64,000 bases of DNA from Patescibacteria group bacterium. Lineage in GTDB: Bacteria; Patescibacteriota; Minisyncoccia; Phycocordibacterales; UBA9973. The translations under genes and the position numbers were made by a program. Below are positions 8,378 through 31,956 of this stretch, one piece after another. The stretch lies in contig JBBTUE010000001.1 in the NCBI GenBank assembly GCA_038063915.1, forward strand, positions 107,905 through 171,904, in the 5' to 3' direction. Every line of letters begins with the position of its first letter. The stretch's first letter is position 1. The notes under the pieces were generated by a model, which was not told the DNA's origin, did no database searches, and saw only the letters and a list, made by a program, of their open reading frames with translations.

Positions 8378-8379
8378 AT

Positions 8380-10320
8380 ATGTACGTTACTAAAAGATCA
8401 ACTCATAACCCTATACTCATTCCTAATCGAGATCACTATTGGGAGGCGTTCGCGACTTTTAATATGTGCCCGATAAAGAAAGGTAAAACAACTTATGGAT
8501 TATATCGGGCTATTTCGGCAGTAGACCACATGGCTATCCAACAGCAAGTATCTACTATTGGTATAGGCAAAAGTAAGGACGGCGTTCATTTCGAAGAACG
8601 TAAACCATTTATAACACCGACCGAAGAATGGGAGGCACATGGTTGCGAAGATCCTAGAGTAACGTACTTCGAAGGAAAGTATTATATATTTTATACAGCG
8701 TTATCGAGGTATCCATTTGGGCCGGAGGGGATCAAAGTTGCCGTAGCTGTGTCAAAAGATTTAAAGAATGTCGACGAACGTCACTTCGTCACACCATTTA
8801 ATGCAAAAGCCATGACGCTCTTCCAAGAACGTATCAATGGTAAGATCACTGTTATATTTTCTGCCCATACAGATAGTCCTCCAGCAAAAGTATGCATTGC
8901 GCAATTTGATAATATCGAGCAACTTTGGGATCTGGATTTCTGGGAAGAATGGGTTAAAGATATCGACAAATATGCTGTAGATTTCCGTCGTAACCCATAC
9001 GACCACTTAGAAATTGGTGCACCTCCATTACTTACGAAATACGGTTGGCTTCTAATATATTCACATATTCAAAATTACTTTCAATCCCCAGAGAGGCTCG
9101 ATCGCATTTTTGGCATAGAAGCACTCTTGCTTGATATCAGCGATCCAACAAAAATTTTAGGCAGGACAAAAGGACCGATATTAGCACCAGAAGAGTCGTA
9201 CGAGATGTCAGGCTATGTAGGGAATGTTGTCTTTCCAACTGGTGCACTTATAGAGAAAGATACACTAACTATTTACTACGGTGCTGCCGATACTACCACT
9301 TGCTCTGCACATTTGAATTTAACCGACCTGATTTCCACCATGGCAGATCTAACTTCAAATGATTGGAAGTTCAAGCGTGCACCTACTAACCCTATAATAT
9401 CTCCTAGAGAAGAGTTTAAATGGGAATCCAAGGCAACTTTTAATCCAGCGGCAATTTATCTCGGCGGTCAAACACACATTTTGTATCGAGCGCTGTCAGA
9501 CGATAATACTTCGTCTATCGGCTATGCAACAACAAAGGACGGTATTAATGTAGTTGATCGTTTAGATGCCCCAGTTTATGTGCCTCGTGAAGATTTCGAA
9601 TTAAAAAAAATTGGCGGTGGTAACTCTGGGTGTGAAGATCCACGACTGACCAAGATAGGTAAGAATATTTATATTTGTTATACATCTTATGATAGTATTG
9701 GGCCACCGCACGTAGCCATATCTTCGATATCTGAGAAAGATTTTATGGCTCACAGGTGGAATTGGGATAAACCAATTCTAATAACACCAGCCGGCTTCGA
9801 CGATAAAGATGCTTGTCTGTTCCCAAAGAAGTTTAAAGAAGGTTACTTCATCATTCATCGTGTCGGCAACGACATATGTGGTGATTATCTAAAGTCGCTT
9901 GATTTCAAGAAAGATACTGTAAGTAAGTGCATACGAATATTGAGTCCACGCTCAAATTTATGGGATAGTGCTAAAGTTGGAGTAACTGCTCCACCAATTA
10001 AAACAAAGTATGGATGGTTAATGCTCTATCATGGTGTATCGAAAAGCCATGGGACCTATCGTGTGGGGGTGGTGTTACTTGACCTAAAAGATCCTGGCAT
10101 AGTTCTTGCTCGCGCTACAGATGCTATATTTGAACCAGAAGAATTATATGAAAAAATAGGCGTTGTGAGCAACGTCGTTTTCCCTTGTGGTATGGTTATA
10201 AAAGATGACACAATATATATATACTATGGTGGTGCAGATAAGGTTGTCGGAGTAGCTACTATGAAGCTATCTATTATCATCGATGCGCTAGTTCACGGAG
10301 TAAAATTCAACTATAAATAA
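8380..10320 (+). CDS. tandem double GH130-family (DUF377) phosphorylase-like protein
   Basis: Two consecutive ~320 aa GH130-like domains (NPILIPNRDHYWEAFATFN...YRAISAVD...IGIGKSKDGVHFEER and NPIISPREEFKWESKATFNPAA...YRALSDDNTSSIGYATTKDGINV) each with GCEDPR motif. Confidence 0.6.
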   Translation: MYVTKRSTHNPILIPNRDHYWEAFATFNMCPIKKGKTTYGLYRAISAVDHMAIQQQVSTIGIGKSKDGVHFEERKPFITPTEEWEAHGCEDPRVTYFEGKYYIFYTALSRYPFGPEGIKVAVAVSKDLKNVDERHFVTPFNAKAMTLFQERINGKITVIFSAHTDSPPAKVCIAQFDNIEQLWDLDFWEEWVKDIDKYAVDFRRNPYDHLEIGAPPLLTKYGWLLIYSHIQNYFQSPERLDRIFGIEALLLDISDPTKILGRTKGPILAPEESYEMSGYVGNVVFPTGALIEKDTLTIYYGAADTTTCSAHLNLTDLISTMADLTSNDWKFKRAPTNPIISPREEFKWESKATFNPAAIYLGGQTHILYRALSDDNTSSIGYATTKDGINVVDRLDAPVYVPREDFELKKIGGGNSGCEDPRLTKIGKNIYICYTSYDSIGPPHVAISSISEKDFMAHRWNWDKPILITPAGFDDKDACLFPKKFKEGYFIIHRVGNDICGDYLKSLDFKKDTVSKCIRILSPRSNLWDSAKVGVTAPPIKTKYGWLMLYHGVSKSHGTYRVGVVLLDLKDPGIVLARATDAIFEPEELYEKIGVVSNVVFPCGMVIKDDTIYIYYGGADKVVGVATMKLSIIIDALVHGVKFNYK

Positions 10321-16543: not shown

Positions 16544-16580
16544 TAATTAAAAGTTACGAATTACTAATTAAGAATAAGGC

Positions 16581-16620
16581 AAAAATCACACAAAAATTTA
16601 CGAATTTTTGTGTGATTTTT
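16581..16620. terminator. perfect 18-bp inverted repeat with 4-nt loop (AAAAATCACACAAAAATT-TACG-AATTTTTGTGTGATTTTT); likely terminator of the paralog operon, or a regulatory palindrome
   Basis: Exact reverse-complement arms read directly from the sequence; followed by T-rich tract; lies between paralog-3 stop and nrdJ. Confidence 0.5.
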
Positions 16621-16749
16621 AATATCGAATTTTTTGTCAATTTTTGTCCCAAAATACCCTCTAGTAGAACGACCTTTTAGAATTTTTTGCTTTGGGTGTT
16701 GACGAAGTTGCGAGCTTAAGACATAGTTGTGGATTTGTCTGTTATGCAC

Positions 16750-16827: not shown

Positions 16828-19161
16828 ATGCCTTCCAAAAAAAGAGTCGTAAGTAAGAAAAAAGTTAGTGTAAAAAAAGTTTCACCCCAAGCGACGAAAC
16901 TCGCTATCAAGAATGATTTTATTAAAAGCGTTCAAAAAAGAGATGGTGCAATTGCTCCGTTTGATATTGAAAAGATCGTGAATGCTATTAATAAAGCTAT
17001 GCTTGCGTGTAATGAAGGCTCAATTAAGGAAGCAGAGATGGTTTCCAATAGGGTATTCATGGAGCTAGTGAAAATTGCCAAGCGACATAAGAGTTTTATC
17101 CCAACAGTTGAAGGTATTCAAGATGCAGTTGAGCAAGAATTAATGCTTTCTGACTATACTAAAACTTCCAAACATTATATTTTATATCGTGAAGAGCGTG
17201 CGAGGTTGCGTTCTCATAGTATCACTGTACCCGATCGTGTAAAAAAACTTACAGATGAGAGTAAAAAGTATTTTAGGAATCCACTTTCTGAATTTGTTTA
17301 CTATAGAAGTTACGCAAAATGGATTGAAGAAGAAGGAAGACGTGAGACATGGATCGAGACTATTGATAGATACATAGACTTCATGAAAAAGAATCTTGGT
17401 AACAAGTTGAAGGAAGCTGAGTATAAAGAAATCCGCGAAGCAATACTCAAACAAGAATCCATGCCATCGATGAGGTTACTCCAGTTCGCAGGACCTGCTG
17501 CAGAGAAGACAAATGTTTGCGCATACAACTGTTCGTTCATTGCACCGTCTCGCTTCGAAGATTTCGGAGAGATTATTTATATCTCTATGTGTGGTACAGG
17601 AGTAGGGTTCTCTGTTGAAAGTAAAAATATTCAAGCCCTCCCTCAGATTAAAAATCAATCTGGTAAAAAGCTAGCGGCGTATGTCGTGCCTGATACAAAG
17701 GAAGGTTGGGCGGATGCGTTTGTTATTGGAATGAAAACTTGGTTTGATGGTAATGATATTAATTTTGATTTCTCTCAACTTCGTCCAGCAGGTGCGAGAC
17801 TAAAAATAATGGGAGGTAAAAGTTCAGGTCCGAAGCCACTTATGGACTTACTAGGATTCACCCGTGAACGTATACTAAAGCGTCAGGGTAGACACCTACG
17901 CAATATAGATGCACATGACATAATCTGTAAGATTGGAGAGTGTGTAGTCTCAGGAGGAGTGCGCCGCAGTGCTCTTATCTCACTATCTGACTTGGATGAT
18001 CAAGATATGCGCGATGCAAAGAATGGCCAGTTTTGGAACTCTGAAGGCCAGCGCATGCTTGCCAACAACTCGGCAGTTTATAATACAAAGCCTACAGAGA
18101 CTGAATTTCTAAGGGAATGGATTGCCCTTATGGAGTCAGGCTCAGGGGAGCGAGGCATATTTAATCGTGGTGCACTTACTACATCTTTACCAAAACGCAG
18201 ATTAGAAGTTTCAAAAGATTATATAGGAGAGATGGGGACAAATCCTTGCGGTGAGATAGTGCTCAGGTCAAGACAATTTTGTAATCTTTCAGAAGTCGTT
18301 GCGCGAGCCGAAGATACAGAAGAGACGCTAATGAAGAAGATCCGTATCGCGACAATTCTCGGTACTTATCAGTCGACTCTTACAAAGTTTGGATATCTTT
18401 CAAAAGAATGGCAAGAGAATTGTGAAGCAGAAAGATTACTCGGTGTATCTGTCACCGGACAGTGGGATTCAAAGTTTGCACGTGATCCGGAGGTACTAAA
18501 GAAACTCAAGAATGAAGCAATTCGTGTGAATAAAATATATGCAAAAAGATTTGGAGTAAATGAATCTACCTGTATTACTTGCGTAAAACCATCTGGTACG
18601 GTATCTCAGACAGTTGATTGTGCATCAGGCATGCATCCACGTCATGCCCCTTACTATATTCGCCGCGTCCGTATTTCTGCCACGGATTCATTATTTAAAA
18701 TGATGAAAGATCAAGGGGTACCTTACTATCCAGAAATAGGTCAGGCACATGACAGTGCAAATACTTTTGTTTTGGAATTTCCAATGAAAGCGCCTCACGA
18801 TGCAATATGTAAAGATGATATATCTGCGATAGATCAGCTTGAACACTGGAAAGTAGTAAAAGTTAATTTCACAGAACACAATCCTTCGGTGACTGTATCA
18901 GTCGGAGAAAATGAATGGATAAAAGTAGCTCATTGGCTTTACCAGAACTGGGAGATTGTCGGAGGGCTATCATTTTTACCTAGAAGTAACCATGTCTATC
19001 AGCTTGCTCCGTACGAAGCAATAAGCGAGAAGACTTACAGAGAACTTGCTAAAAAAATGCCAGATTTTGATTTCTCTAAGATTGTTACTTATGAAGTAAG
19101 AGATGAAACAGAAGTCAAAAGAGAGCTTGCTTGTGTAGCAGGAGTCTGTGATATAGTCTAA
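16828..19161 (+). CDS. nrdJ: ribonucleotide reductase, class II (adenosylcobalamin-dependent) with N-terminal ATP-cone
   Basis: ATP-cone (VQKRDGAIAPFDIEKIVNAINKA), catalytic NPCGEIVLRSRQFCNLSEV loop typical of NrdJ, C-terminal Cys pair (CVAGVC); no NrdB/NrdF-like gene adjacent. Confidence 0.7.
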   Translation: MPSKKRVVSKKKVSVKKVSPQATKLAIKNDFIKSVQKRDGAIAPFDIEKIVNAINKAMLACNEGSIKEAEMVSNRVFMELVKIAKRHKSFIPTVEGIQDAVEQELMLSDYTKTSKHYILYREERARLRSHSITVPDRVKKLTDESKKYFRNPLSEFVYYRSYAKWIEEEGRRETWIETIDRYIDFMKKNLGNKLKEAEYKEIREAILKQESMPSMRLLQFAGPAAEKTNVCAYNCSFIAPSRFEDFGEIIYISMCGTGVGFSVESKNIQALPQIKNQSGKKLAAYVVPDTKEGWADAFVIGMKTWFDGNDINFDFSQLRPAGARLKIMGGKSSGPKPLMDLLGFTRERILKRQGRHLRNIDAHDIICKIGECVVSGGVRRSALISLSDLDDQDMRDAKNGQFWNSEGQRMLANNSAVYNTKPTETEFLREWIALMESGSGERGIFNRGALTTSLPKRRLEVSKDYIGEMGTNPCGEIVLRSRQFCNLSEVVARAEDTEETLMKKIRIATILGTYQSTLTKFGYLSKEWQENCEAERLLGVSVTGQWDSKFARDPEVLKKLKNEAIRVNKIYAKRFGVNESTCITCVKPSGTVSQTVDCASGMHPRHAPYYIRRVRISATDSLFKMMKDQGVPYYPEIGQAHDSANTFVLEFPMKAPHDAICKDDISAIDQLEHWKVVKVNFTEHNPSVTVSVGENEWIKVAHWLYQNWEIVGGLSFLPRSNHVYQLAPYEAISEKTYRELAKKMPDFDFSKIVTYEVRDETEVKRELACVAGVCDIV

Positions 19162-19166
19162 ATTAT

Positions 19167-19694
19167 ATGAAAAGGAATTGGATTAAATATACAATTGCAT
19201 TTATAGCAGTCCTAGGCTTACGGCTGATACCATTTAGAGCTCCAAATGTGGAGCCTGTAATGTCAGCGATTATGCCCTTTGGCCGAGTCTATGGCAAACT
19301 ATCTGCTTTCTTATTTGGAGCTATGAGTATTGTCATATACGATAGTTTAACCTCAGGATTAGGCGTCTGGAGCGCTATTACAGCCGTTGCTTATGGACTT
19401 GTTGGACTTGGCGCGGGGTATTACTTCAAAAATAGGACAGGATGGAGAAATTATGCTCTCTTTGCTATCTTTACGACTATACTTTATGACGTCGTGACTG
19501 GGCTTACCCTCGGGCCACTCTTTTTCGATCAAACACTTTCCAACGCCTTGGTAGGTCAGATTCCTTTTACCCTACTGCACTTGCTTGGCAACGTAGTATT
19601 TGCTATAGTGCTTTCACCGGTGATAGAAACGTGGATTAGAAAAGAGTCAAAAGTTGTCGTGCCTGTTACTAGAAAAGTCGCATTGAGTAGTTAG
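19167..19694 (+). CDS. small polytopic membrane protein (ECF S-component-like size/topology), co-transcribed with nrdJ
   Basis: 175 aa, ~5-6 hydrophobic helices; starts 5 nt after nrdJ stop; no recognisable named motif. Confidence 0.45.
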   Translation: MKRNWIKYTIAFIAVLGLRLIPFRAPNVEPVMSAIMPFGRVYGKLSAFLFGAMSIVIYDSLTSGLGVWSAITAVAYGLVGLGAGYYFKNRTGWRNYALFAIFTTILYDVVTGLTLGPLFFDQTLSNALVGQIPFTLLHLLGNVVFAIVLSPVIETWIRKESKVVVPVTRKVALSS

Positions 19695-19704
19695 TGTATT
19701 TTTA

Positions 19705-19870
19705 AAATTCAACCTATTGTGTTTGGAAGTGAGGTGAGATTCCTCCACTGTGCCGCAACGGTAAAGCTCTATAAAGAGACGAGTCCGATCTTAACACACT
19801 AGCGTATCCCGAGCAGGAGATAGATGTATTTATACATCTACCCAAATCTTCTGCTCACACAGGAGTTTTT
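19705..19870 (+). ncRNA. candidate cobalamin (B12) riboswitch with expression platform
   Basis: GGAAGTGAGGTGAGATTCCTCCACTGTGCCGCAACGGTAAAGC matches the conserved cobalamin aptamer core (GGGAA..GGUG.AA.UCC...CUG.CCCGCAACGGUAA). P1-like pairing TTGTGTT(~19717)/AACACA(~19793). B12-box-like GAGCAGGAGA at ~19811-19820. Downstream hairpin TAGATGTA-TTTA-TACATCTA inside a longer stem GAGCAGGAGA/TCTTCTGCTC, then AGGAG RBS and ATG 19881. Confidence 0.6.
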
Positions 19871-19880
19871 TTATTTTATT

Positions 19881-20312
19881 ATGAAAAACAAGAAATACTA
19901 CATATTTATAACAGTACTCGCGCTATCACTTACATTTGGTTGTGCACATTTTGCGTTGGCAAAAAATACTAAATACGTTGTAAAGAAACCTATTGCCAAG
20001 GTGAAGGCCATAAAAATAGAAAATCTTGTCACATTAGATGTGCTAGGTAGTACGTATAAAGTAAGCATTAAAGACAAGGATACTGCATACGATGCAATGG
20101 TTGGTCTTCAGAACAATAAAAATAATAATTTTTCCTTTCGTTCCAAAAATTATTCAAGTCTAGGAAACTTTATTTATGAGATAAATGGGATAAAAGGCAC
20201 CCCTGGTCGTTATTGGATTTATTATATTAATAACAAGAAGGCAACACTTGGTGTTTCTAAGTATGTCCTCAAATCTGGGGATATAATTTCTTGGAAACAA
20301 GAAGGAATTTAA
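19881..20312 (+). CDS. secreted small protein resembling the transcobalamin/intrinsic-factor beta-domain (DUF4430-like); start moved from track 19824 to 19881
   Basis: From ATG 19881 the product begins MKNKKYYIFITVLALSLTFGCAHFALA (signal peptide, possible lipoprotein Cys). C-terminus GRYWIYYINNKKATLGVSKYVLKSGDIISWK fits the yWxLL...G..Y.lk.GD.I..r.W motif of the B12-binding beta-domain. 19824-19880 overlaps the riboswitch platform. Confidence 0.5.
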   Translation: MKNKKYYIFITVLALSLTFGCAHFALAKNTKYVVKKPIAKVKAIKIENLVTLDVLGSTYKVSIKDKDTAYDAMVGLQNNKNNNFSFRSKNYSSLGNFIYEINGIKGTPGRYWIYYINNKKATLGVSKYVLKSGDIISWKQEGI

Positions 20313-20315
20313 TTC

Positions 20316-22388
20316 ATGAAAAAACTAATCATACTATTAATAAGTTTCGCAAGTATTTCTTTTTTCAGTGTTGCTTCTGCTGATACAACAATCCACTTGG
20401 ATGTAGTGACATCTACTGGCTCACTCTACAACCAAGATATCACAGTCGCCCCTTGTGATAGTGACAATGCAGGCACTATGGCCGTCACTGCATACTGTGC
20501 AGTCTTGCAATCAGGCTTGGCTAACGATTGGTCGTGGTTTGGATCTGATGCGTTTTTAAATTCCATTGATACAAAAGTTAATAATGATAATAATAATGGT
20601 ATTTATTGGGGTTGGTTTGCTAATCTTGAACTCGGTCAAACAGCTCTCAATAAATACGTACTCATGGAAGGTGATTCCATCCTTATAAATTACGACATTA
20701 ACCCATTAAAAATTGCAGTTGATAATACTAATCCATCTGTCGGCAGTAGTATTAAGTTTACTGTTATGTCGTTTGGTTTTGACTCTAGTTGGAACCCAGC
20801 TTGGTCTCCTGTTGTTGGGGGGAAAATTGTTATAGGGCCAGATACTCTAGATCTTGATTTAGATGGCACGTATTCATTTATAGTTATAGATACAACCCCA
20901 CTGATAGTAAAAGGACAAGCTATCGGATTTCTAGAAACTAAAGAATTAGTTATAACCCCAACTGTTTCTTTAGATGTCACAGCGCCTATAATTACCTTGA
21001 TTGGTGATACGACAGAATCTATAAACGTAGGCAGTGATTATATAGAAAAAGGTGCAACTGCTACAGACGATATAGATGGAGATATAACTAGTAAAATAGT
21101 AATTACTGGTAATGTTGATACTTCTAAAGTAGGTAGCTATGATATTTTATTTGATGTGAGTGATTTGTTAGGGAATAAAGCAAACACAGTAACTCGTACA
21201 GTAAATGTTATAAATTCTGGGGGTGGAGGTGGTGGACCAACTCTTTCTACTTTATCTATACCCCAAGCGACACTCTTTCTTGCAAACAACCAGGATATAA
21301 ATGGATCTTTCATAGACTCTCTATATACCGACTGGGTAGCCATAGCGGTAGGTTCACTTGGGTCTTCAGGAGATATTATGAAAGCGAAGATATCTGAGTA
21401 TATGAAGATGAATCCACTTATGTCCTCTGTTATTACAGATAATGAACGCCGTGCTATGGCTCTAATGTCGCTAGGTATCAATCCGTACTCTGGGACAAGT
21501 GTAGATTATATAAATAAAATCGTATCTTCGTATGACGGAACTCAATTTGGAGACAATACACTATTTAATGACGACATCTTTGCTTTAATAGTACTTCAAA
21601 AGGCAGGTTACATCTCCACAGATACAATGATAGTGAAAGATATTGAATATATATTATCATATCAATCTCCTGATGGATCGTGGGGAAGTATTGATATGAC
21701 TGGTGCTGCGTTGCAAGCACTCAGTAACTTTACCGATATTGCTGGCGTGCAATCTTCAATATTAAAAGGGGAGAACTATTTAATAAGTACGCAGCAAGTT
21801 GACGGGGGATTCTATAATTCTTCTTCAACGAGTTGGGCACTCCAAGCTCTATCTAGTAATCCATCTTTCTCATCAGGGGTTGCTCGAGCTGATGATTACC
21901 TTGCTAAGTTACAACAAGCTGATGGGGGAGTGGAGTTGTCGACAAGCATAATCGAGAATCGTATCTGGGCTACTGCATATGCTATACCAGCTGCACTCCA
22001 CAAGACTTGGTCAAATATTCTACAATCATTTCCAAAACCCATCATATCAACTGGTGGAGGTGGAACTTCGACTATATTAATACCAGAAGTGGAATCTTTA
22101 ACTCAAAAATTAGTCAAAGAAGAAGAGAAGATAGATGAAAAAAAGATAGAGGAGTTAGAAGTAATAAATAAAGACTCCTTAATAAAACCAAAACTAAAAA
22201 ATACCCAGAAGGTAACTAAGCCCAAAGTTGTTGCTAAAGCTAACCCTGTACCGAACACCTCAAATGTCTTAGTCGCAAACGCATCCTCTTCTTTAGAAGC
22301 TGAAACGCCATCTAGGTCATTTTTCAGTAGGATAGTGGGGACAATCAAAGTCCCGTTTATATGGCTTTGGGACAAGCTCGGATTTTGA
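20316..22388 (+). CDS. secreted multi-domain surface protein with Ig-like (DUF5011-type) domain and prenyltransferase/terpene-cyclase-like alpha/alpha-toroid repeats
   Basis: Signal peptide; DUF5011-like segment PIITLIGDTTESINVGSDYIEKGATATDDIDGDITSKIVITGNVDTSKVGSYDILFDVSDLLGN; Gly7 linker; repeated Q/DGxW-type motifs (YQSPDGSWGS, QQVDGGFYNS, QQADGGVEL) of alpha-alpha toroid proteins; K-rich tail and hydrophobic C-terminus. Confidence 0.55.
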   Translation: MKKLIILLISFASISFFSVASADTTIHLDVVTSTGSLYNQDITVAPCDSDNAGTMAVTAYCAVLQSGLANDWSWFGSDAFLNSIDTKVNNDNNNGIYWGWFANLELGQTALNKYVLMEGDSILINYDINPLKIAVDNTNPSVGSSIKFTVMSFGFDSSWNPAWSPVVGGKIVIGPDTLDLDLDGTYSFIVIDTTPLIVKGQAIGFLETKELVITPTVSLDVTAPIITLIGDTTESINVGSDYIEKGATATDDIDGDITSKIVITGNVDTSKVGSYDILFDVSDLLGNKANTVTRTVNVINSGGGGGGPTLSTLSIPQATLFLANNQDINGSFIDSLYTDWVAIAVGSLGSSGDIMKAKISEYMKMNPLMSSVITDNERRAMALMSLGINPYSGTSVDYINKIVSSYDGTQFGDNTLFNDDIFALIVLQKAGYISTDTMIVKDIEYILSYQSPDGSWGSIDMTGAALQALSNFTDIAGVQSSILKGENYLISTQQVDGGFYNSSSTSWALQALSSNPSFSSGVARADDYLAKLQQADGGVELSTSIIENRIWATAYAIPAALHKTWSNILQSFPKPIISTGGGGTSTILIPEVESLTQKLVKEEEKIDEKKIEELEVINKDSLIKPKLKNTQKVTKPKVVAKANPVPNTSNVLVANASSSLEAETPSRSFFSRIVGTIKVPFIWLWDKLGF

Positions 22389-22401
22389 TATAATAATAAA
22401 C

Positions 22402-22962
22402 ATGAAATCAAAATTTATAGCACTGGTAGTTGTGGTAATATTGTTCGTCGTTGGGCTAGGGGTTTTTATGAATAAGAATACAAGCATTGGTAAATATGAT
22501 GATTTTGCCAAAAGCTTGACTACACAGGGAGCCAAATTTTATGGTGCCTTTTGGTGCCCACACTGCTTGGCCGAGAAGGCCCTGTTTGGAAGTTCAAAGC
22601 GATATTTACCATATGTTGAGTGCTCTAATCCTGACAAAACTCAAGTTCAAATATGTATAGATAATAAAATAGAGAATTATCCAACTTGGACATTTAGAGA
22701 CGGTATAACTTTACTTTCAGAGAGTACTCCTACAATCTGTGAAATTAGTCCTGGCAAAGATGGAGAAGAACCTATATGTGAGCAAGTAGCTTCGAAATAT
22801 TATCGTACCTGGATATTCCCAGAGCATCGGTTATCTATAAAAAGTCCGACTGACCCTATTGTCAAAGATGGTGTTTGGAAATTCGAAGTTGGTTCCAAAG
22901 CAACGGGGGAGATACCTCTTGAATTCTTGGCACAACAGATAGGATATACACTTCCACAATAA
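22402..22962 (+). CDS. membrane-anchored thioredoxin-like protein (VKOR/DsbB partner type)
   Basis: N-terminal TM anchor then FYGAFWCPHC CxxC motif typical of Trx-like domains partnered or fused with VKOR. Confidence 0.6.
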   Translation: MKSKFIALVVVVILFVVGLGVFMNKNTSIGKYDDFAKSLTTQGAKFYGAFWCPHCLAEKALFGSSKRYLPYVECSNPDKTQVQICIDNKIENYPTWTFRDGITLLSESTPTICEISPGKDGEEPICEQVASKYYRTWIFPEHRLSIKSPTDPIVKDGVWKFEVGSKATGEIPLEFLAQQIGYTLPQ

Positions 22963-22963
22963 T

Positions 22964-23512
22964 ATGCCAGCATACATAGAAACATTGAATCAGTTTTTAT
23001 CACTTGGCATAATCGGTTTGCAAGTTATAATTGTGGCCTTGCTTTTAAATCTTGTTTTTTTTAGATCACATACAAATCAAATATTAATTTTCTTTAAGAA
23101 AAATACTTTTACATTTGGATTCATGGTTGCTCTCTGCTCGACCCTTTTTAGTCTATTCTATTCAAATGTTGTTGGCTTCCCACCGTGTGAACTTTGCTGG
23201 ATAAATCGAATATTTATTTATCCGCAAGTCATACTTTTTGGTATGGAGTTGTACAAGCGAGACAAAGCTATAATTGATCAGAGTCTAGTCCTCGCAGTGT
23301 TTAGTGCTCTGACATCAATACTACATGTGTATGTCGAGAATGGAGGAGCGTCGTCACTTGCATGTGCGACAGGGGGACCGGCTACAATCTCATGTGCGAC
23401 CCTATATGTCTATGAATTTGGTTATATTACTATTCCTTTGATGGCGCTCACTGCTGCAGTATTTACCATCTTAATTTTAGTTAATTATAAGTACATGTCT
23501 AAGGCTAAATAA
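22964..23512 (+). CDS. disulfide bond formation protein, DsbB/BdbC family
   Basis: 4 TM helices, first periplasmic loop PCELCWINRIFIYPQ (CxxC) and second loop Cys pair (ACATGGPATISCA), as in Bacillus BdbC. Confidence 0.6.
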   Translation: MPAYIETLNQFLSLGIIGLQVIIVALLLNLVFFRSHTNQILIFFKKNTFTFGFMVALCSTLFSLFYSNVVGFPPCELCWINRIFIYPQVILFGMELYKRDKAIIDQSLVLAVFSALTSILHVYVENGGASSLACATGGPATISCATLYVYEFGYITIPLMALTAAVFTILILVNYKYMSKAK

Positions 23513-23515
23513 AAT

Positions 23516-23944
23516 ATGTTAGTAGAAAAAATAAACAAAGAATCCAAAGATATAGTATTCATATATACAACTTGCCCAACTCTCGACGAGGCTCGTTCTA
23601 TAGGGCTCTCTGTCATAAAGGAGAAGCTCGCTATATCCGCTGACTACTGGGTTATCGGATCTATTTACCCATGGCACAATGTTATCCAAGATGTTGGCCA
23701 ATATATGCTTATGCTCACCACAGAAAAAGAGCTCAGTGAAAGACTTACGAAGCATATAGGTAGTATGCACTCGTACAGTGCGCCGATGATTGCAAGGCTA
23801 AACACTTCTTTAATTAACCCCAACTATACATTTTGGGTTGATAATACACTGCGAAGCAAGGACGACTATATATCTGAGCATGATAGTAAAATAAAAGAAA
23901 GAAATGACGATGAAGACGGATACCGTTATGGTAAGTTGAAATAG
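23516..23944 (+). CDS. cutA: divalent-cation tolerance protein CutA family
   Basis: IVFIYTTCPTLDEARSIGLSVIKEKLAISADYWVIGSIYPWHNVIQDVGQYMLMLTTEKELSERLTKHIGSMHSYSAPMI matches CutA1 fold. Confidence 0.6.
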   Translation: MLVEKINKESKDIVFIYTTCPTLDEARSIGLSVIKEKLAISADYWVIGSIYPWHNVIQDVGQYMLMLTTEKELSERLTKHIGSMHSYSAPMIARLNTSLINPNYTFWVDNTLRSKDDYISEHDSKIKERNDDEDGYRYGKLK

Positions 23945-23945
23945 T

Positions 23946-25691
23946 ATGGAAGCTCAAAATAAAATATGCCAGAATTGCAAAAATTCCTTCGTCATCGAAC
24001 CAGAGGATTTTTCTTTCTACGAAAAGATAAAAGTTCCTCCACCGACATTTTGCTCTGAGTGTAGTTTGATACGACGTATGGCGTTTCGTAACGAAAGAAC
24101 TCTATATCGACGCAAATGCCAAGCTCCAGGACATGGTGAAGATATGCTCAGTGTCTTTTCACCAGACAAAGAAGCAACGATATATTGTCACTCCGCGTGG
24201 TGGGGTGATTCTTGGGATGGATTGAGCTACGGACGCGACTACGATTTCTCTAGGAATTTTTTCGAACAAATAAATCATCTCTGGAGAGAAGTTCCAGACA
24301 TAGGGCTATTTAATATAAATCCAGTGAATAGTGATTATTGTAGTATTACAGAGGGAAACAAGAATTGTTATTTAGTTATTGGGGGAGATTTTAATGAAGA
24401 TTCACTCTATTCCGCGTTTATATTTAATTCTAAATTTTTAGTTGATTGTTACTGGGTTTCAAAAAGCGAATGGAATTATGAGACCATTGATTGTATTTCA
24501 TGTTCACGATTGTTATTTAGTCGCTATTGCGAAGGATGCTATGGAAGTACTTTTATGTTTAACTGCCGCAATTGTCATGACTGCTTTGGGTGCGTTAATT
24601 TATCAAATAGATCGTATTGCATTTTTAACGAACAATACTCTAAGGAAGAATATCATAATAAATTAAAAGAGTTCAATATATCATCATGGAAAGAACTACA
24701 AAAAATTAAAGCGACATTTACTGAATTTAGTAGAAAGTTTCCAAGGCGCTTTGCCAAGATTATCAAGTCGGTTGATGTAACAGGGGACGATATAGAAGAA
24801 TCAAAGAATTGCAAAAACTCCTTCTCGATTTTTGGAGGAGCCGAAGATTCAAAAAATCTATGGCTTGTTTACTCGTCAGTAAAGAATTGCTATAACATAG
24901 ATCACTCAGGACTCTCTTCAACTGATTGCTACGAAGTATCAAGCGCATATCCTGGAAACAAAGTCCTTTTTTCACGTTTTATCTTTGAAGGTTTTAATAT
25001 TGAATACAGCTATAATTGCCATAACTGTTCAAATTTATTTGGTTGTATTGGATTACGTAACAAGCAATACTGTATCTTAAACAAACAATATTCTAAAGAG
25101 GATTATGAGGTCCTAATTCAAAAAATAAAAGCTCATATGAATGATAATAAATATATTGACCAAGGCGGAAGGGTATATGGCTATGGAGAATTTTTCCCGA
25201 TAGAGATATCGCCATTTCTTTATAATGAAACAGTAGCTCAAGAACTCAAGCCAATATCTAGAGATGAAGCAAATGCAAGTGGCATTAGATTAATGGAAAG
25301 TGTAGATAGGAATTACAAGATTACAAAGAATATGGAAGACCTTACTGACACAATTGAAAAAGTTGAGGACTCAATACTAGATGACGTGATAAGTTGTGCA
25401 CATAAAGGCAGCTGTGCACATGAGTGTGCAACTGCATTCAAAATTACAAAAGCTGAACTCGAGTTCTATAGAAATTTGAAGTTACCATTGCCACACTTAT
25501 GTCCAAATTGTAGACATTACGAGAGAATAAGCCAAAGAAATCCAATGAAACTCTGGCATAGGTCGTGTATGTGTGAAAAGAAAGGGCATATCCATGAGGC
25601 AAAATGCACAGTAGAATTTGAGACTAGCTATTCTCCGGAGCGACCAGAGATTATATACTGCGAAAAGTGCTATCAACAAGAAGTAATCTAG
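23946..25691 (+). CDS. cysteine-rich zinc-ribbon-repeat protein, paralog 4 (distal copy)
   Basis: 581 aa; N-term CQNCKNSFVIEPEDFSFYEKIKVPPPTFCSECSLIRRMAFRNERTLYRRKC, central YCILNKQYSKEDYEVLIQKIKAHM, C-term CATAFKITKAELEFYRNLKLPLPHLCPNCRHYER...EFETSYSPERPEIIYCEKCYQQEVI; collinear with 11274-16543 paralogs. Confidence 0.7.
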   Translation: MEAQNKICQNCKNSFVIEPEDFSFYEKIKVPPPTFCSECSLIRRMAFRNERTLYRRKCQAPGHGEDMLSVFSPDKEATIYCHSAWWGDSWDGLSYGRDYDFSRNFFEQINHLWREVPDIGLFNINPVNSDYCSITEGNKNCYLVIGGDFNEDSLYSAFIFNSKFLVDCYWVSKSEWNYETIDCISCSRLLFSRYCEGCYGSTFMFNCRNCHDCFGCVNLSNRSYCIFNEQYSKEEYHNKLKEFNISSWKELQKIKATFTEFSRKFPRRFAKIIKSVDVTGDDIEESKNCKNSFSIFGGAEDSKNLWLVYSSVKNCYNIDHSGLSSTDCYEVSSAYPGNKVLFSRFIFEGFNIEYSYNCHNCSNLFGCIGLRNKQYCILNKQYSKEDYEVLIQKIKAHMNDNKYIDQGGRVYGYGEFFPIEISPFLYNETVAQELKPISRDEANASGIRLMESVDRNYKITKNMEDLTDTIEKVEDSILDDVISCAHKGSCAHECATAFKITKAELEFYRNLKLPLPHLCPNCRHYERISQRNPMKLWHRSCMCEKKGHIHEAKCTVEFETSYSPERPEIIYCEKCYQQEVI

Positions 25692-25726: not shown

Positions 25727-27484
25727 ATGCACGTTGATGAGAAAACAATTATAGATCTCCTAAATAACTCCGGCCTTGTTTCGAAGACTGATGTGGCTAT
25801 GGCTCAAAAGAAAGCCAAAGAGACCAACCAATCTATTGGTGGGGTACTTGTGAGCGACGGTAAGTTGACTGAGAAAGATTGGAATAGCATGCAAGCAGTA
25901 TCGCTTGGCATTCCTTTTGTGAGCTTAAAAGGGGAGAAAATAGAGCCAAGTGTTCTCTCTATGATTCCAGAGCCAATTGCTCGCAATAATAATATTATTG
26001 CATATAAGAAAACTAAAGCTGGGCTAGAAGTGGCGATGCTAGATGTGGACAATCTTTCTGTTATCGACTTTATTAAGAAAAAAGTAGGGCTCAAAATTCT
26101 TCCCCGCATGACGAGTTCAGATTCTATCAAAGAAGCCCTCACTCAATACAAGAAAAGTCTGCAAGCTGACTTTGAAGATATTATCAAAAAAGAAAGTGCT
26201 TCTATTAAAGCTGTATCTGAAGATGGAAAACCTGGCGAAGAAAAATCCGAGAAAGAATTAAAGGAATTAGCTGAAGATTTACCAATAGTTAAAATTGTGG
26301 ATACTCTTATTTCCCACGCTATTCTCCAAGGATCATCTGATATACATATCGAGCCTGGCGAAGCTTCTCTTGTCGTGCGCTATCGTATCGACGGTATATT
26401 ACATGACGCTATGGTCTTACCCAAAGACACAGCTCCAGGAATCGTCGCTCGTATTAAAGTATTATCTAATCTGAAACTTGATGAGAAACGTCTTCCCCAA
26501 GACGGGCGATTTAAAATTGTGAGTGACGACGGCAATGTATCTTTTCGTGTATCGACGCTACCGACATATTTTGGAGAGAAGACAGTTATACGTATACTGC
26601 GTGAGAACTCAAAAGGATTTTCACTAGAGACTCTTGGTTTCCACGGTGAAGCGCTTGAGCGTATTCACGAAGGAATGAAACAGCGCAATGGAATGCTTCT
26701 TTGTGCTGGTCCTACAGGTTCAGGTAAAACTACAACTCTCTATACAATGCTCGATTTACTTAATACTCCAGAAGTTAATATTTCGACAGTTGAGGATCCA
26801 ATCGAGTATCAAATGGCACGCATAAATCAGACTCAAACTAAAGCGGAAATAGGCCTCACTTTTGCCAATGGTCTGCGTACACTTCTTCGTCAAGACCCAG
26901 ATATTATCATGGTGGGGGAAATCCGTGATGGTGAAACTGCTTCACTTGCGGTCAATGCCTCCCTAACAGGTCACTTGGTTCTATCGACTATCCATACGAA
27001 TTCGGCTGCAGGTGCTATCCCTCGTATGATCGACATGGGAGTCGAACCTTTCCTTATAGTTTCCACGGTTCGTAATGTTATTGCCCAGCGCTTAGTTCGA
27101 GTTCTTGATACTAGTAAAGAGAAGTATTTCCTAAGTGACGCCGAGAAAAAATCTCTAGAGAAAGTTATAGATATGAATCGTATGCTTGAAATTCTTAAAA
27201 AAGAGAAAGTTGTACCTACAGATGCGACGTGGGAGACTATTCCTCTCTATAAACCTAAACCAAGCGAAGAGTCCGAAAGTGGATACAAGGGTCGCTTGGG
27301 AATACATGAAGTTATGAAAATCACCCAGACTATCAAAGAGCTCATTTTAAAAGGTGCCTCCGCTGATGAAATTGAAAAAAGGGCTAAAGTAGAAGGAATG
27401 ATGACAATGCTCGAAGACGGTATTTTCCTTGCGGTCCAAGGGCGAACTTCAACAGAAGAAGTTCTCCGTGTAGTCTCAGAGTAA
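25727..27484 (+). CDS. pilB: type IV pilus assembly / type II secretion ATPase (PilB/GspE family)
   Basis: GspII_E N-domain, Walker A LLCAGPTGSGKTTTLY, Asp box, Walker B, His box; Zn-binding region. Confidence 0.85.
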   Translation: MHVDEKTIIDLLNNSGLVSKTDVAMAQKKAKETNQSIGGVLVSDGKLTEKDWNSMQAVSLGIPFVSLKGEKIEPSVLSMIPEPIARNNNIIAYKKTKAGLEVAMLDVDNLSVIDFIKKKVGLKILPRMTSSDSIKEALTQYKKSLQADFEDIIKKESASIKAVSEDGKPGEEKSEKELKELAEDLPIVKIVDTLISHAILQGSSDIHIEPGEASLVVRYRIDGILHDAMVLPKDTAPGIVARIKVLSNLKLDEKRLPQDGRFKIVSDDGNVSFRVSTLPTYFGEKTVIRILRENSKGFSLETLGFHGEALERIHEGMKQRNGMLLCAGPTGSGKTTTLYTMLDLLNTPEVNISTVEDPIEYQMARINQTQTKAEIGLTFANGLRTLLRQDPDIIMVGEIRDGETASLAVNASLTGHLVLSTIHTNSAAGAIPRMIDMGVEPFLIVSTVRNVIAQRLVRVLDTSKEKYFLSDAEKKSLEKVIDMNRMLEILKKEKVVPTDATWETIPLYKPKPSEESESGYKGRLGIHEVMKITQTIKELILKGASADEIEKRAKVEGMMTMLEDGIFLAVQGRTSTEEVLRVVSE

Positions 27485-27488
27485 TAAG

Positions 27489-28703
27489 ATGAAATTTAAA
27501 TACAAAGCACAAAATAAAGCAGGTGGTGTTATCGAAGGAGTAAAAGAAGCACCTGATAAATTTGCACTTGCACGTGAAATAAGGGAAGAGGGTAATGTAC
27601 CTCTTTCAATTGAGGAGTCCAAAGAAAAATCCATTGGAAAATTTCTACAGTTTAATTTGTTCAGTGGGGTTTCACTATCAACAAAGATAACTTTTACAAA
27701 TAATTTAAGCGGGATGTTATCTGCAGGTCTATCACTAACTCGAGCACTTTCAATTTTCGAAAAGCAAACCAAAAATGTCACCTTTAAAAAAACTCTAACG
27801 AGCTTAGTTGAAGACGTAAATAGTGGTAATACTCTCTCAGACGCTATGAAGAAATTCCCAAAGATTTTTTCACCACTTTTTGTTTCAATGGTTCGCTCTG
27901 GAGAAGAGTCAGGTGGCCTACCAAAGGCACTTTCAGAAGTTGGTATAAATCTAAAGAAATCTTATGATTTAAAGAAAAAAATCAAAGGTGCACTAATGTA
28001 TCCGAGTATAATATTGTGCGCTATTTTCCTCATTGGTGTGCTCATGATGATTTATGTTGTTCCGACTCTCACTAAAACTTTTAAAGATCTAGGTGGTGAT
28101 TTACCAAGCTCTACTAAATTTATAATTTGGCTCTCTGACACTATTAGTCAGCATACACTACTGTTTTTAACAGTGACTTTTCTAATTGTTGGGTCATTTG
28201 TACTTTTTGCAAAATCAAAAGTGACGAAAAAATATTTTGATTACATTATTTTAAGAATTCCAGTTATAGGTAACCTTACCCGAGAAGTAAATACTGCCAG
28301 AACAGCTCGTACGCTCTCATCGCTACTTACCTCAGGGGTTGATATGTCTAGGGCACTTTCCATAACTGAGGATGTCTTACAGAATATGTATTACAAGAGA
28401 TTAGTTCACGAATCAATTATATCTATAGAGAAAGGCGGAGTGCTATCTGCCTCATTCAAAGGAGCGACGCATCTCTATCCTATGATGATGGGTGAGATGA
28501 TAGAAGTCGGCGAAGAGACTGGGAATTTATCCAAGATGTTGCTAGATATTGCCAATTTTTATGAATCAGAGGTTGATAATAAAACCAAAGATCTCTCCGT
28601 TATTGTTGAGCCTATACTCATGGTCTTTATTGGTGGCGCAGTCGGGTTCTTTGCTGTATCGATGATCACACCTATGTATTCGGTTATGAGTAATATTAAA
28701 TAA
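27489..28703 (+). CDS. pilC: type IV pilus / T2SS inner-membrane platform protein (PilC/GspF family)
   Basis: Two GspF repeats, 3 TM helices, immediately downstream of pilB. Confidence 0.85.
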   Translation: MKFKYKAQNKAGGVIEGVKEAPDKFALAREIREEGNVPLSIEESKEKSIGKFLQFNLFSGVSLSTKITFTNNLSGMLSAGLSLTRALSIFEKQTKNVTFKKTLTSLVEDVNSGNTLSDAMKKFPKIFSPLFVSMVRSGEESGGLPKALSEVGINLKKSYDLKKKIKGALMYPSIILCAIFLIGVLMMIYVVPTLTKTFKDLGGDLPSSTKFIIWLSDTISQHTLLFLTVTFLIVGSFVLFAKSKVTKKYFDYIILRIPVIGNLTREVNTARTARTLSSLLTSGVDMSRALSITEDVLQNMYYKRLVHESIISIEKGGVLSASFKGATHLYPMMMGEMIEVGEETGNLSKMLLDIANFYESEVDNKTKDLSVIVEPILMVFIGGAVGFFAVSMITPMYSVMSNIK

Positions 28704-30219: not shown

Positions 30220-31956
30220 ATGAAAATAAATACTAATTTTCCAAGAACAAATAGCGGTGCGGCAATGATGATTGTCGTCTTATTCTTTGTATTTATTAGT
30301 CTGACTATTCTCGTTGGCATTATCGCACCATCTGTTCGCGAGTTTAAAATAGCAGGCACAACATTTAACTCTAAAAACGCATATTTTCTAGCGGAATCTG
30401 GAGTAGAAGATGCATTATATAGAATAAGAAACAATAAGCAAATCAGCGCCAGTGAGATAATAGTATTAGGGACTTCAAGTACCACCACCACTATCACCGA
30501 TATTTCAAGTAGCCAAAAACAAATTGTCTCACTCGGTGATAAAAGTTCTAATGAAAGGAAAGTAGATGTCACTGTGACGACCGGTGTGGGTGTATCATTT
30601 AGTTACGGAGTCCAAGCTGGCAAGGGTGGGTATAGTATGGGTAATAATTCAAGTGTTATTGGAAGTGTCTACTCGAACGGGCCAATAACAGGCTCTGGTT
30701 CAATCACTGGTAGCGCGACTTCGGCGAATTCCGGAACTCTTACACCAGATCAATCCAATGGGTCCGGAACACCGGCTTATGATGTATCTTTTGGTAATGC
30801 AAATGGCACACAAGATTTCGCTCAGAGTTTTCAAGTGAGTACAGATGAAGTTGCAAACAAAGTTCAGCTTTATATAAAAAAAGTTGGTAGTCCGTCAAAC
30901 TTAACTGTGAGAGTAGTGAATAACTCAAGCGGAAGTCCATCTACAACAGTTAAAACTTCTGGTACACTTTCTGCCTCACTCGTATCTACAAACTATGGCT
31001 GGGTAGATGTAGTATTTTCTACAAACCCACAACTCGACGCTGGTACTACCTACTGGATAGTATTAGATGCAGCTACTTCTACTTCAAATTATTATAAGAT
31101 TGGTGCAAATGATAATGGCTATGCAAATGGTGCAAGCAAGATAGGTCAGTATAGTGGCACATGGAATAACAATAGCCCTTCCACTCTCGATGGTTTCTTT
31201 AGTCTGTACATTGGAGGGATCACTGGACTTATAAGTGGTATCACCATAGGTACAGGCTCTGTCGGTAATGCCTATTCTCATACAACAAATAATTCTACCA
31301 TCAGAGGTACAAATTACTGCCAGACAGGTACTGGCAACAATAAGGCTTGCAATACTACCCTTGCTGATCCAGTTGAAGTTACTATGCCTATATCTGATCA
31401 AAATATTCAAGACTGGAAAGACGCTGCTGTTGCTGGAGGGACGTATACAGGTACCTATACTGTTTCTGGCTCTACTGCTACCCTAGGCCCCAAAAAGATT
31501 ACTGGTGATTTGGTTGTTGATAATAATGGTACCCTCATTGTCAGTGGAACTCTTTGGGTGCAAGGCAATCTTGATGTGAATAATAACGGACTTGTCAAAC
31601 TTGTATCAGGCTATGGAAGCTCTGAGGGGGTCATAATTGTTGATGGTACTGTCGATGCTAGTAATAACGCTAATTTCCAAGGTTCTGGTACATCAGGCAG
31701 TTATATGATGGTACTCTCTACATCTACGTCAGCAAGTGCTATAAAGGTAGGTAATAACGTCGGTGCTGTTATCTTATATGCTGCGAATGGAACCATTGAT
31801 ATAAATAATAATGGTGCTGCCAAGTCACTCAATGGCTATCTAATAAAATTAGGTAATAATGTCACAATTACCTATGATAGTGGGCTTGCGAATGCAAATT
31901 TCTCAAGTGGTCCGTCTGGGTCTTATAATATCTCAAGTTGGAAAGAAACCCAATAA
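30220..31956 (+). CDS. large pilus-associated protein with N-terminal TM/prepilin-like helix (PilX-like)
   Basis: 578 aa; N-terminal SGAAMMIVVLFFVFISLTILVGII hydrophobic helix; Gly/Ser/Thr/Asn-rich beta-type body; last gene of pilus operon. Confidence 0.45.
   Translation: MKINTNFPRTNSGAAMMIVVLFFVFISLTILVGIIAPSVREFKIAGTTFNSKNAYFLAESGVEDALYRIRNNKQISASEIIVLGTSSTTTTITDISSSQKQIVSLGDKSSNERKVDVTVTTGVGVSFSYGVQAGKGGYSMGNNSSVIGSVYSNGPITGSGSITGSATSANSGTLTPDQSNGSGTPAYDVSFGNANGTQDFAQSFQVSTDEVANKVQLYIKKVGSPSNLTVRVVNNSSGSPSTTVKTSGTLSASLVSTNYGWVDVVFSTNPQLDAGTTYWIVLDAATSTSNYYKIGANDNGYANGASKIGQYSGTWNNNSPSTLDGFFSLYIGGITGLISGITIGTGSVGNAYSHTTNNSTIRGTNYCQTGTGNNKACNTTLADPVEVTMPISDQNIQDWKDAAVAGGTYTGTYTVSGSTATLGPKKITGDLVVDNNGTLIVSGTLWVQGNLDVNNNGLVKLVSGYGSSEGVIIVDGTVDASNNANFQGSGTSGSYMMVLSTSTSASAIKVGNNVGAVILYAANGTIDINNNGAAKSLNGYLIKLGNNVTITYDSGLANANFSSGPSGSYNISSWKETQ

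Follow-up and report, generated by a model that had tools for sequence, protein, structure and literature searches.

A Cys-rich gene between cutA and pilB belongs to a Paceibacteria family of predicted zinc-ribbon/β-solenoid proteins possibly linked to VirD4-like ATPases

The gene considered here lies at positions 23946..25691 on the forward strand of a 64,000-nt stretch of contig JBBTUE010000001.1 from a Patescibacteria group bacterium (the window; all coordinates are counted from its start). It is an intact open reading frame (ORF) with an ATG start codon, encodes 581 amino acids (aa) and, as the 'D-type' member of a Cys-rich family, is called the D copy below. The best overall explanation, given a somewhat less than even chance, is that the D copy is a core paralog of a family of cytoplasmic zinc-ribbon/solenoid proteins that serve as adaptors or scaffolds for a VirD4-like ATPase. 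The structural description is much more secure than this overall estimate, whereas the ATPase-adaptor step is much less so and is held with low confidence. A preceding sequence-only reading had described the gene as a fourth, collinear paralog some 7.4 kb from a tandem trio (paralogs A, B and C), and both points hold: the D copy aligns end to end with the three proteins at 40-43% identity (Table 1) with 131 invariant columns, a paralogy far beyond chance, and 7,402 nt separate the end of the trio (16543) from the start of the D copy.

Domain architecture and predicted fold

The D copy is acidic overall (net charge -10), contains 35 Cys and 15 His residues and has the layout Z-S-S'-linker-Z'. 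Comparison of sub-alignments with hhalign detected two internal duplications, whereby Z (aa 10-85) matched Z' (aa 493-576) with a probability of 99.1% and an E-value of 4e-19, and S (aa 125-243) matched S' (aa 274-394) with a probability of 99.7% and an E-value of 1.4e-26. Z and Z' each possess two knuckle pairs and a helix rich in conserved Arg; C8/C11/C36/C39 in the former and C484/C494/C519/C522 in the latter are invariant or nearly so. In Z, the first ribbon (C8, C11, C36, C39) is followed by the Arg-rich helix (R40, R44, RNER at 48-51), with a further helix at 105-115. The second knuckle pair is made of four Cys with an exact x17 spacing in paralogs B and C and is of the C/H/C/H kind in D-type proteins, so that the second ribbon of Z is degenerate in the D copy (C58, H63, C81, H82); among the D-type orthologs these residues occur with frequencies of 78, 71, 37 and 71%, respectively. 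The candidate ligands in Z' are C484, H486, C490, C494, C519, C522, C541, C543, H548, H550, C554, C572 and C575, and its C-terminal tail, YCExCYQxEV, is conserved up to the last residues. The linker between S' and Z' has a net charge of -7 and carries the family-wide motifs YGEFFP and SPxxYNETxAQE. Moreover, many residues that are not ligands are invariant across 453 sequences.

The closest known counterpart of the second ribbon is the CxxC-x17-CxxC finger (TIGR04272 / PF23477 zf_Tbcl_2), a domain which binds zinc experimentally (PMC12704099). Paralogs B and C reproduce the exact spacing in their second Z ribbon, while the profile scores remained below the curated cut-offs of 27 bits (PF23477, Pfam) and 36 bits (TIGR04272, NCBIfam), at 23.0 and 21.8 bits for paralog C and 18.0 and 15.3 bits for paralog A. 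Members of another paralog lineage do pass PF23477 (precomputed match), and JGI names one of them accordingly. In comparison, the D copy gave no match to either profile and lacks the C-x2-C-x17-C-x2-C spacing. The finger accounts for about 35 of the 581 residues, and its known examples, such as small proteins of Methanosarcina mazei, are stand-alone small proteins or short tails, unlike a 580-aa duplicated solenoid protein.

A hydrophobicity scan of 192 family members found neither a signal peptide nor a membrane segment: no member (0/192) had a 19-residue stretch with a Kyte-Doolittle value above 1.6, and the maximum in the D copy was 0.86. The family proteins are, therefore, predicted to be soluble and cytoplasmic.

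The middle of the protein is built of repeats. Module S consists of approximately 7 coils of 12 residues, with interior positions 2, 5, 8 and 11 filled by Cys, Ser, Thr, Asn or Val, and ends in a cap, FGCxNLxNxxYCIFNxQYSKEEY, plus a helix. Both S modules show hydrophobicity periods of 3.0 and 11.5-12, and the spacings between Cys residues in the 192 members are almost exclusively multiples of 3. Cys is found mainly at positions 2 and 5, and the commonest substitution at interior positions is Cys to Ser. The last coil of S, C207-x2-C210-x2-C213-x2-C216, is alone among the coils in having 85-96% Cys at all four positions. This coil reads CxxCxxCxxC, as opposed to the CxxCxxCxxxCP or CxxCxGxG centres, and neither Fer4 nor DnaJ_CXXCXGXG matched the D copy at E<=1.

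The AlphaFold2 (AF2) model calculated from 144 sequences reached a predicted local distance difference test score (pLDDT) of 90.7 and a predicted TM-score (pTM) of 0.91, with short strands in the expected register; regular short strands extended over residues 303-377 of S' (pLDDT 83-98). In an earlier model from 49 sequences, the β-bridges were exactly 12 residues apart. A sequence-profile search of the PDB gave only two spurious matches (E about 1). In a Foldseek search against the PDB, the top matches were all β-helix proteins (LpxD, LpxA, GlmU and γ-carbonic anhydrase), none of them significant (E >=6e-3, TM <0.2, root-mean-square deviation 10-20 Å). Since the best matches all belong to this one class, the left-handed β-helix of hexapeptide ([LIV]-G-x4) repeats, the local β-solenoid geometry is recognised. 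The family differs from that class in its period of 12, not 18, in lacking a Hexapep match in Pfam and in the non-significance of the fold match.

With a period of 12 and small inward residues at every third position, both S modules have the characteristics of a β-helix with 12-residue coils. The classic example of such a β-helix is the Tenebrio molitor antifreeze protein (TmAFP; PDB 1EZG). TmAFP is a secreted protein of about 84 aa, has disulfides that join positions 2 and 8, and binds ice through a TxT face. It shares with the family the coil length and the filling of inward positions 2, 5, 8 and 11 by residues of Cys, Ser or Ala size, and is likewise Cys-rich for steric reasons. In contrast, the family is cytoplasmic by prediction, has its Cys mainly at positions 2 and 5, lacks a TxT ladder and possesses, in each chain, two solenoids with zinc ribbons on either side. 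There was no sequence or Foldseek match between the two, and the resemblance is one of geometry, not ancestry. A functional analogy only can be drawn with the pentapeptide-repeat proteins (Qnr, MfpA), cytoplasmic β-solenoids offering a rigid surface to which macromolecular machines bind; their period is 5/20 as opposed to 3/12 in the family, with no homology, and the family is only mildly acidic and has no link to gyrase. The idea of a DNA mimic was weakened by the same modest net charge and by solenoids that are not strongly acidic.

Since the inward positions hold interchangeable Cys and Ser, the Cys richness would mainly be structural, with zinc ligands in the ribbons and packing in the core of a narrow solenoid, and not a sign of disulfide or redox chemistry. 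The building blocks are of known kinds; their combination, a bacterial cytoplasmic 12-residue solenoid and the link to an ATPase are not described in the literature searched.

Size, range and conservation of the family

None of the four paralogs had a match above threshold in Pfam, NCBIfam, PADLOC or PHROGs. PADLOC gave no match at all and PHROGs only weak ones without function (best E-value 2.4e-4, on paralog A), and membership in anti-phage defence was accordingly not retained. Literature searches found no paper on the family. Nevertheless, it is large. More than 7,905 clusters at 90% identity were obtained in a protein search, and every named source among them belonged to Patescibacteria/Paceibacteria, including Paceibacterota, Nomura-, Staskawicz- and Liptonbacteria and Minisyncoccia. 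The best 120 clusters were 52-87% identical over the full length, all named ones being 'hypothetical'. An exhaustive profile search gave 4,931 representatives at 50% identity, 2,144 of them at E<=1e-30; among the 150 representatives listed, the length was mostly about 550-600 aa.

In species-representative genomes, at least 581 relatives were present, with record titles of Patescibacteria or unclassified bacterium in all but one case. The lone exception (L014 in the numbering of relative loci used here; CAYZAZ010000094.1) is a short contig of 2,185 bp binned as 'uncultured Gammaproteobacteria' and is probably a binning error. A metagenome scan with the single D protein as the query yielded 3 distant loci only. 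There were no relatives in IMG/VR, among the INPHARED phages or among the PLSDB plasmids, by which an origin from mobile elements was rejected.

Conservation runs within paralog lineages. The D-type orthologs are 55-87% identical and form the slowest-evolving paralog lineage among those seen; the D copy shares 87% identity with its ortholog in L001 and 66% with that in L006. In the same two genomes, paralog B has a best match of only 51%, while both possess a B-like copy common to them at 70%, which means that the B copy of the window is either fast-evolving or not a true ortholog. A very divergent paralog in L061 forms its own orthogroup with 55-62% identity across Paceibacteria. The separate conservation of the D-type and L061-type proteins implies that the paralog lineages are ancient and each under purifying selection. 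A fast-diversifying family of the antigenic or defence-like kind was rejected on the same grounds of strong conservation in each lineage. Gene order aside, the family is a large, strongly conserved and uncurated component of Paceibacteria biology.

The copies form co-directional arrays. Counted within ±10 kb of family genes in 82 non-redundant loci, the arrays comprise 1 to 11 copies, the largest being those of L068 (11), L027 (8) and L063, L067 and L078 (7 each). Such a genomic investment, up to about 20 kb in genomes assumed to be <1 Mb, together with several co-encoded and separately conserved paralogs, would fit a self-assembling structural or cytoskeletal element, somewhat like the bactofilins, in which chains with a β-solenoid core join head to tail via the homologous Z and Z' at their termini. 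As opposed to an extended rod with free ends, the pTM of the model points to a compact monomer, and no similarity to bactofilins or other polymer families was found, which makes this role very unlikely.

Gene neighbourhoods and a candidate ATPase partner

In the same 82 loci, genes were called and those no more than two positions from a family gene were clustered, with the largest clusters annotated; the adjacency p-values ignore shared ancestry and refer to a background adjacency of 19%. The commonest neighbour is a P-loop ATPase of the VirD4/TraG/HerA-like kind (TrwB_AAD_bind, DUF87, T4SS-DNA_transf and TraG-D_C domains), present in 29 loci (the loci with ATPases beside arrays are given in Table 1). 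It is directly adjacent to a family gene in 23 of 41 genes (p 1.8e-7, kinship ignored). The ATPases flank the arrays, often one on each side, and match phrog_5156 (E 4e-66) and PADLOC mad8 (E 3e-15). They fall into two size classes, one of about 490-510 aa and the other of 610-1010 aa, the latter with a zf_Tbcl_2 finger and a low-complexity tail. The N-terminus was read directly in one case (L063) and had no membrane anchor. Look-ups of D-type orthologs revealed the order ATPase - 2 copies - D - ATPase - DnaJ and, elsewhere, CutA - ATPase - 7 or more copies.

The family's link to this ATPase might work as follows. The rigid, zinc-stabilised solenoid would be a paralog-specific binding surface, variable between paralogs and conserved within each, while docking onto a common partner would fall to the zinc-ribbon ends, with their Arg-rich helices, and to the invariant C-terminal tail. 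Most plausibly, that partner would be the orphan VirD4/TraG/HerA-like ATPase without an evident membrane anchor, whose long form carries the same CxxC-x17-CxxC finger, and CutA might be an occasional accessory. A more far-reaching and doubtful proposal is a Paceibacteria-specific cytoplasmic machine made of exapted, anchor-less VirD4/TraG-like hexameric ATPases and ancient paralog adaptors, sometimes with CutA, in which each paralog presents a different substrate (protein, DNA or RNA).

Several points weigh against the adaptor explanation. No VirD4-like ATPase is encoded in the 64-kb window, and none was seen in 53 of the 82 loci, as judged over ±10 kb only. The zinc finger common to the ATPase and the family is a short, widespread module. 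As Candidate Phyla Radiation (CPR) genomes are compact and co-directional, adjacency is weak evidence of co-function. As to the structural part, the first solenoid is the least confident region of the model (pLDDT 66-88), and the predicted metal content and the handedness of the solenoid rest on sequence patterns and the AlphaFold model. Finally, the C207-C216 coil might form a genuine metal or Fe-S site, and 'purely structural' would then be too strong a wording for the Cys residues.

The same ATPase neighbours suggest another role for the arrays. Coupling proteins of type IV secretion systems (T4SS) recognise their partners through C-terminal signals. The family has an invariant C-terminal tail, and since homologs of coupling proteins flank arrays that look like effector repertoires, the proteins might be secreted cargo, recognised via the tail conserved to its last residues and exported to host cells. 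A conservation of 55-65% per paralog lineage across a whole class is atypical of effectors, and zinc-stabilised rigid folds would be poor substrates for translocation. Furthermore, T4SS channel genes were not seen beside the family arrays, a coupling ATPase is absent from the window, and the N-terminus of the L063 ATPase speaks against anchoring. In a preprint survey of 2,918 CPR genomes, only 148 of 5,713 VirD4-like genes were near virB4, and a possible exaptation was raised (10.1101/2025.01.22.634366). An effector function is, consequently, regarded as quite improbable.

The second neighbour is cutA, found in 9 of the 82 loci and directly adjacent to a family gene in 9/9 (binomial p 3.6e-7, again with kinship ignored). 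These loci belong to at least 4 named lineages, including Nomura-, Jorgensen- and Liptonbacteria and other Paceibacteria, with one further case in an independent look-up; in L064, L087 and L078, cutA stands between the ATPase and the family gene. Thus cutA is the only flanking gene of the D copy whose adjacency recurs in distant lineages, and the D copy can be regarded as a cutA-linked gene, with the same neglect of kinship. CutA binds copper, modulated by pteridines, and remains a cryptic PII-like protein (PMC12685090).

Together with CutA, the family might handle metals or redox equivalents in the cytoplasm, either by binding and buffering Zn, Cu or Fe or through rubredoxin-like or Fe-S centres, which would suit the Cys and His content, the four CxxC...CxxC knuckle pairs, the highly conserved CxxCxxCxxC coil and the copper binding of CutA. 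Most Cys of the solenoid, on the other hand, exchange with Ser, a poor metal ligand, and differ between paralogs; a simple metal buffer would not be expected to show the invariant non-ligand residues and the separately conserved lineages; Pfam gave neither a Fer4 nor a rubredoxin match; and cutA is absent from 73 of the 82 loci. This alternative appears rather doubtful. Of the metal/redox association suggested by the sequence-only reading, the part concerning cutA survived the comparison, while the part concerning DsbB and thioredoxin is probably irrelevant, because both act outside the cytoplasm and no signal peptide or membrane segment was found in any of the 192 members. The survey showed DsbB within 10 kb in 3 loci only, all of them related, and never adjacent, and the D copy lacks the export signal or membrane anchor of a substrate of the Dsb pathway.

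Chaperone genes are a further kind of neighbour, limited to one Nomurabacteria-type sub-lineage, in which grpE, dnaK, dnaJ and a gene for a PaaX-like regulator are interleaved with the arrays. With GrpE directly beside a family gene in 3 of its 5 occurrences, the protein might serve the DnaK/DnaJ/GrpE system as client, co-chaperone or holdase. Against such a role, DnaK is adjacent in 0 of 9 cases, neither a J-domain nor CxxCxGxG occurs in the protein, the association is confined to that sub-lineage, and no CIRCE operator was detected in the window or in 94 loci. A part in the chaperone system is thus highly improbable, and membership in a heat-shock regulon was not supported either, as CIRCE was not detected.

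Local gene order, further features and implications

The neighbours that the earlier reading had placed around the D copy, cutA and a DsbB/thioredoxin pair before it and pilB 35 nt behind it, were confirmed (Table 1), DsbB and CutA1 by Pfam and the thioredoxin-like protein by its motif. On the + strand, the stretches from cutA to the D copy and on to pilB were free of terminator-like sites in a promoter/terminator scan, and the number of promoter-like sites equalled the expectation from shuffled sequence. On the 3' side of PilC are three pilin-like genes and then a large pilin-like protein. The pilB-pilC-pilin cluster ends with the gene at 30220-31956 (+), whose product (578 aa) is rich in Ser, Thr, Gly and Asn, has an N-terminus that is hydrophobic and prepilin-like, lacks a Pfam match and may be a pilus tip or adhesin subunit; the equivalent slot of L001 holds a 586-aa protein, also without a Pfam match.

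Conservation of the order cutA - paralog - pilB among relatives, as envisaged by the sequence-only reading, was found in part. Two relatives alone keep cutA, the family gene(s), pilB and pilC together as a block, so that the refuting outcome named by that reading, an order shared by no relative, did not occur. L001, with the 87% identical ortholog, has the order TerC - MFS - one copy - class I ribonucleotide reductase (RNR) α and β - Trx-like - DsbB - CutA - copy - PilB - PilC. L072, a Paceibacteria metagenome-assembled genome with 48% identity, has the order copies - class II RNR - ECF-S - DUF4430 - Ig-like - Trx-like - DsbB - CutA - three copies - PilB - PilC. The order is already lost at the 78% ortholog, which has other genes downstream and lies next to those for a tRNA-binding protein and PilM. 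The 58-66% orthologs adjoin a resolvase; GrpE/DnaK; phosphoglycerate kinase, acylphosphatase and RNase T; initiation factor IF-1 and ribosomal-protein genes; or DnaG/RpoD.

These neighbourhoods bear on an accessory role in the type IV pilus or competence, in which a cytoplasmic D copy would bind, for instance, incoming DNA or PilB. The short gap to pilB without a terminator-like site, the order kept in L001 and L072, PilM 1 kb downstream of the 78% ortholog, ComEC and RecJ about 9-12 kb downstream of the D copy in the window, the Arg-rich helices after the zinc knuckles and a recurrent ATPase neighbour of the DNA-translocase superfamily are all consistent with it. In the survey, PilB adjoined a family gene in 3 of 82 loci, all of one lineage, apart from one PilB paralog on the opposite strand; the 58-66% orthologs sit in unrelated contexts, and the protein is acidic. 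As CPR genomes very commonly carry pilus genes (PMC6744442), some adjacency by chance is also to be expected. Without linkage to pilB/pilC across lineages, the pilus/competence association does not generalise, and a pilus function of the D copy is unlikely.

The D copy had also been taken as a dispersed copy whose existence beside the tandem trio argued for the importance of the family. The importance is supported, by family size and conservation; the argument from dispersal is not. Family genes stand at both ends of a conserved RNR...DsbB-cutA block, with a copy number that varies at each end, so that the D copy is not a dispersed insertion. The cutA-D copy-pilB position is, therefore, mostly local gene order inherited within the lineage and, apart from the cutA adjacency, says little about function. 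The placement of the D copy beside cutA and pilB was correct and is in itself ordinary, and neither the pilus nor the disulfide reading generalises.

The 7.4-kb gap between the trio and the D copy holds a class II (B12-dependent) RNR and then an ECF-S-like transporter component, which immediately precede an adenosylcobalamin (AdoCbl) riboswitch lying just upstream of a DUF4430 gene and overlapping its start. Next is an Ig-like protein (690 aa) whose cobalamin-binding-like match is weak, and then the thioredoxin-like/DsbB pair and cutA. The genes at 16828-22388 (RNR, ECF-S-like component, riboswitch, DUF4430 and Ig-like protein) together look like a compact module for acquisition and use of B12. 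The RNR class is swapped at the same syntenic slot: the window (16828-19161) and L072 have class II with the B12 module, and L001 (4740-8371) has class I (α plus β) with no B12 uptake genes there. In the 285-nt gap between paralog C and the RNR gene, an AT-rich perfect palindrome with a 19-bp stem and a 4-nt loop (16580-16621) may act as a terminator in both directions or as a site for protein binding. The thioredoxin-like/DsbB pair (22402..23512) is an extracytoplasmic disulfide system, in which the adjacent DsbB probably has the thioredoxin-like protein as its MdbA/DsbA-like partner; a comparable CPR-enriched oxidoreductase family has been linked to pilin folding (PMC6744442). A separate VKOR homolog is located at 3467-3886. 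It is preceded by a 707-aa ORF (1342-3465, +) without a Pfam or PADLOC match, which lies between a methyltransferase gene and the VKOR gene. Two adjacent genes of the glycoside hydrolase family 130 (GH130) type occupy 7214-10320 (+): the first has one GH130 domain, and the second (646 aa) has the double-domain look of a β-1,2-mannobiose phosphorylase with an NCBIfam match that stays below the cut-off (E 9e-127). Adjoining this pair is a mannose-6-phosphate isomerase-like cupin.

Table 1. Coordinates of the D copy modules and neighbouring features in the window, and loci of relatives with ATPases beside family arrays
Feature	Position	Strand	Basis or remark
Paralog A, 594 aa	11274..13058	+	43% identity to D copy; family hidden Markov model 811 bits
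Paralog B, 562 aa	13062..14750	+	40% identity to D copy; canonical CxxC-x17-CxxC second ribbon
Paralog C, 584 aa	14789..16543	+	42% identity to D copy; sub-threshold zf_Tbcl_2 / TIGR04272 match at aa 53-87
AdoCbl riboswitch	19699..19859	+	Rfam RF01482, 58.5 bits (gathering score 50)
Thioredoxin-like protein, 186 aa, membrane-anchored, WCPHC	22402..22962	+	Motif only, no Pfam match
DsbB	22964..23512	+	Pfam E 9e-10
cutA (CutA1)	23516..23944	+	Pfam E 3e-18; stop 1 nt before ATG of D copy
D copy, module Z, aa 1-118	23946..24299	+	Invariant Cys columns; AF2 pLDDT >90; hhalign against Z'
D copy, module S, aa 119-262	24300..24731	+	12-residue register, column profiles, AF2 β-bridges
D copy, module S', aa 263-402	24732..25151	+	Second homologous predicted β-solenoid and cap helix, fewer Cys; hhalign, AF2
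D copy, acidic linker domain, aa 403-477	25152..25376	+	Conservation across 453 sequences
D copy, module Z', aa 478-581 and stop codon	25377..25691	+	Duplicate of Z
pilB	25727..27484	+	T2SSE E 3e-121; 35 nt after stop of D copy
pilB-pilC	25727..28703	+	Pfam T2SSE and T2SSF; immediately downstream of D copy
ATPases beside arrays	L006, L008, L011, L019, L022, L026, L029-L032, L034, L036, L038, L039, L041-L044, L049, L058, L063, L064, L066, L067, L078, L079, L081, L086, L087, L094		

In genomes this compact, a place beside pilB or DsbB is a weak functional clue, and caution is required, as only the cutA adjacency survives the comparison across genomes. Paceibacteria have very small genomes and yet keep 1 to 11 copies of a 1.75-kb gene, with each paralog lineage 55-65% identical across the class, and such conservation marks a core function. 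A definition of the family would give a name and a domain model to thousands of 'hypothetical proteins' and would extend the rare 12-residue β-solenoids by a case from the bacterial cytoplasm. The family is, moreover, a candidate partner for the VirD4-like ATPases that occur as orphans, by the thousand, in CPR bacteria (10.1101/2025.01.22.634366). If true, the proposed ATPase-adaptor machine would represent a novel kind of system, with a fold class as yet unseen in solved structures.

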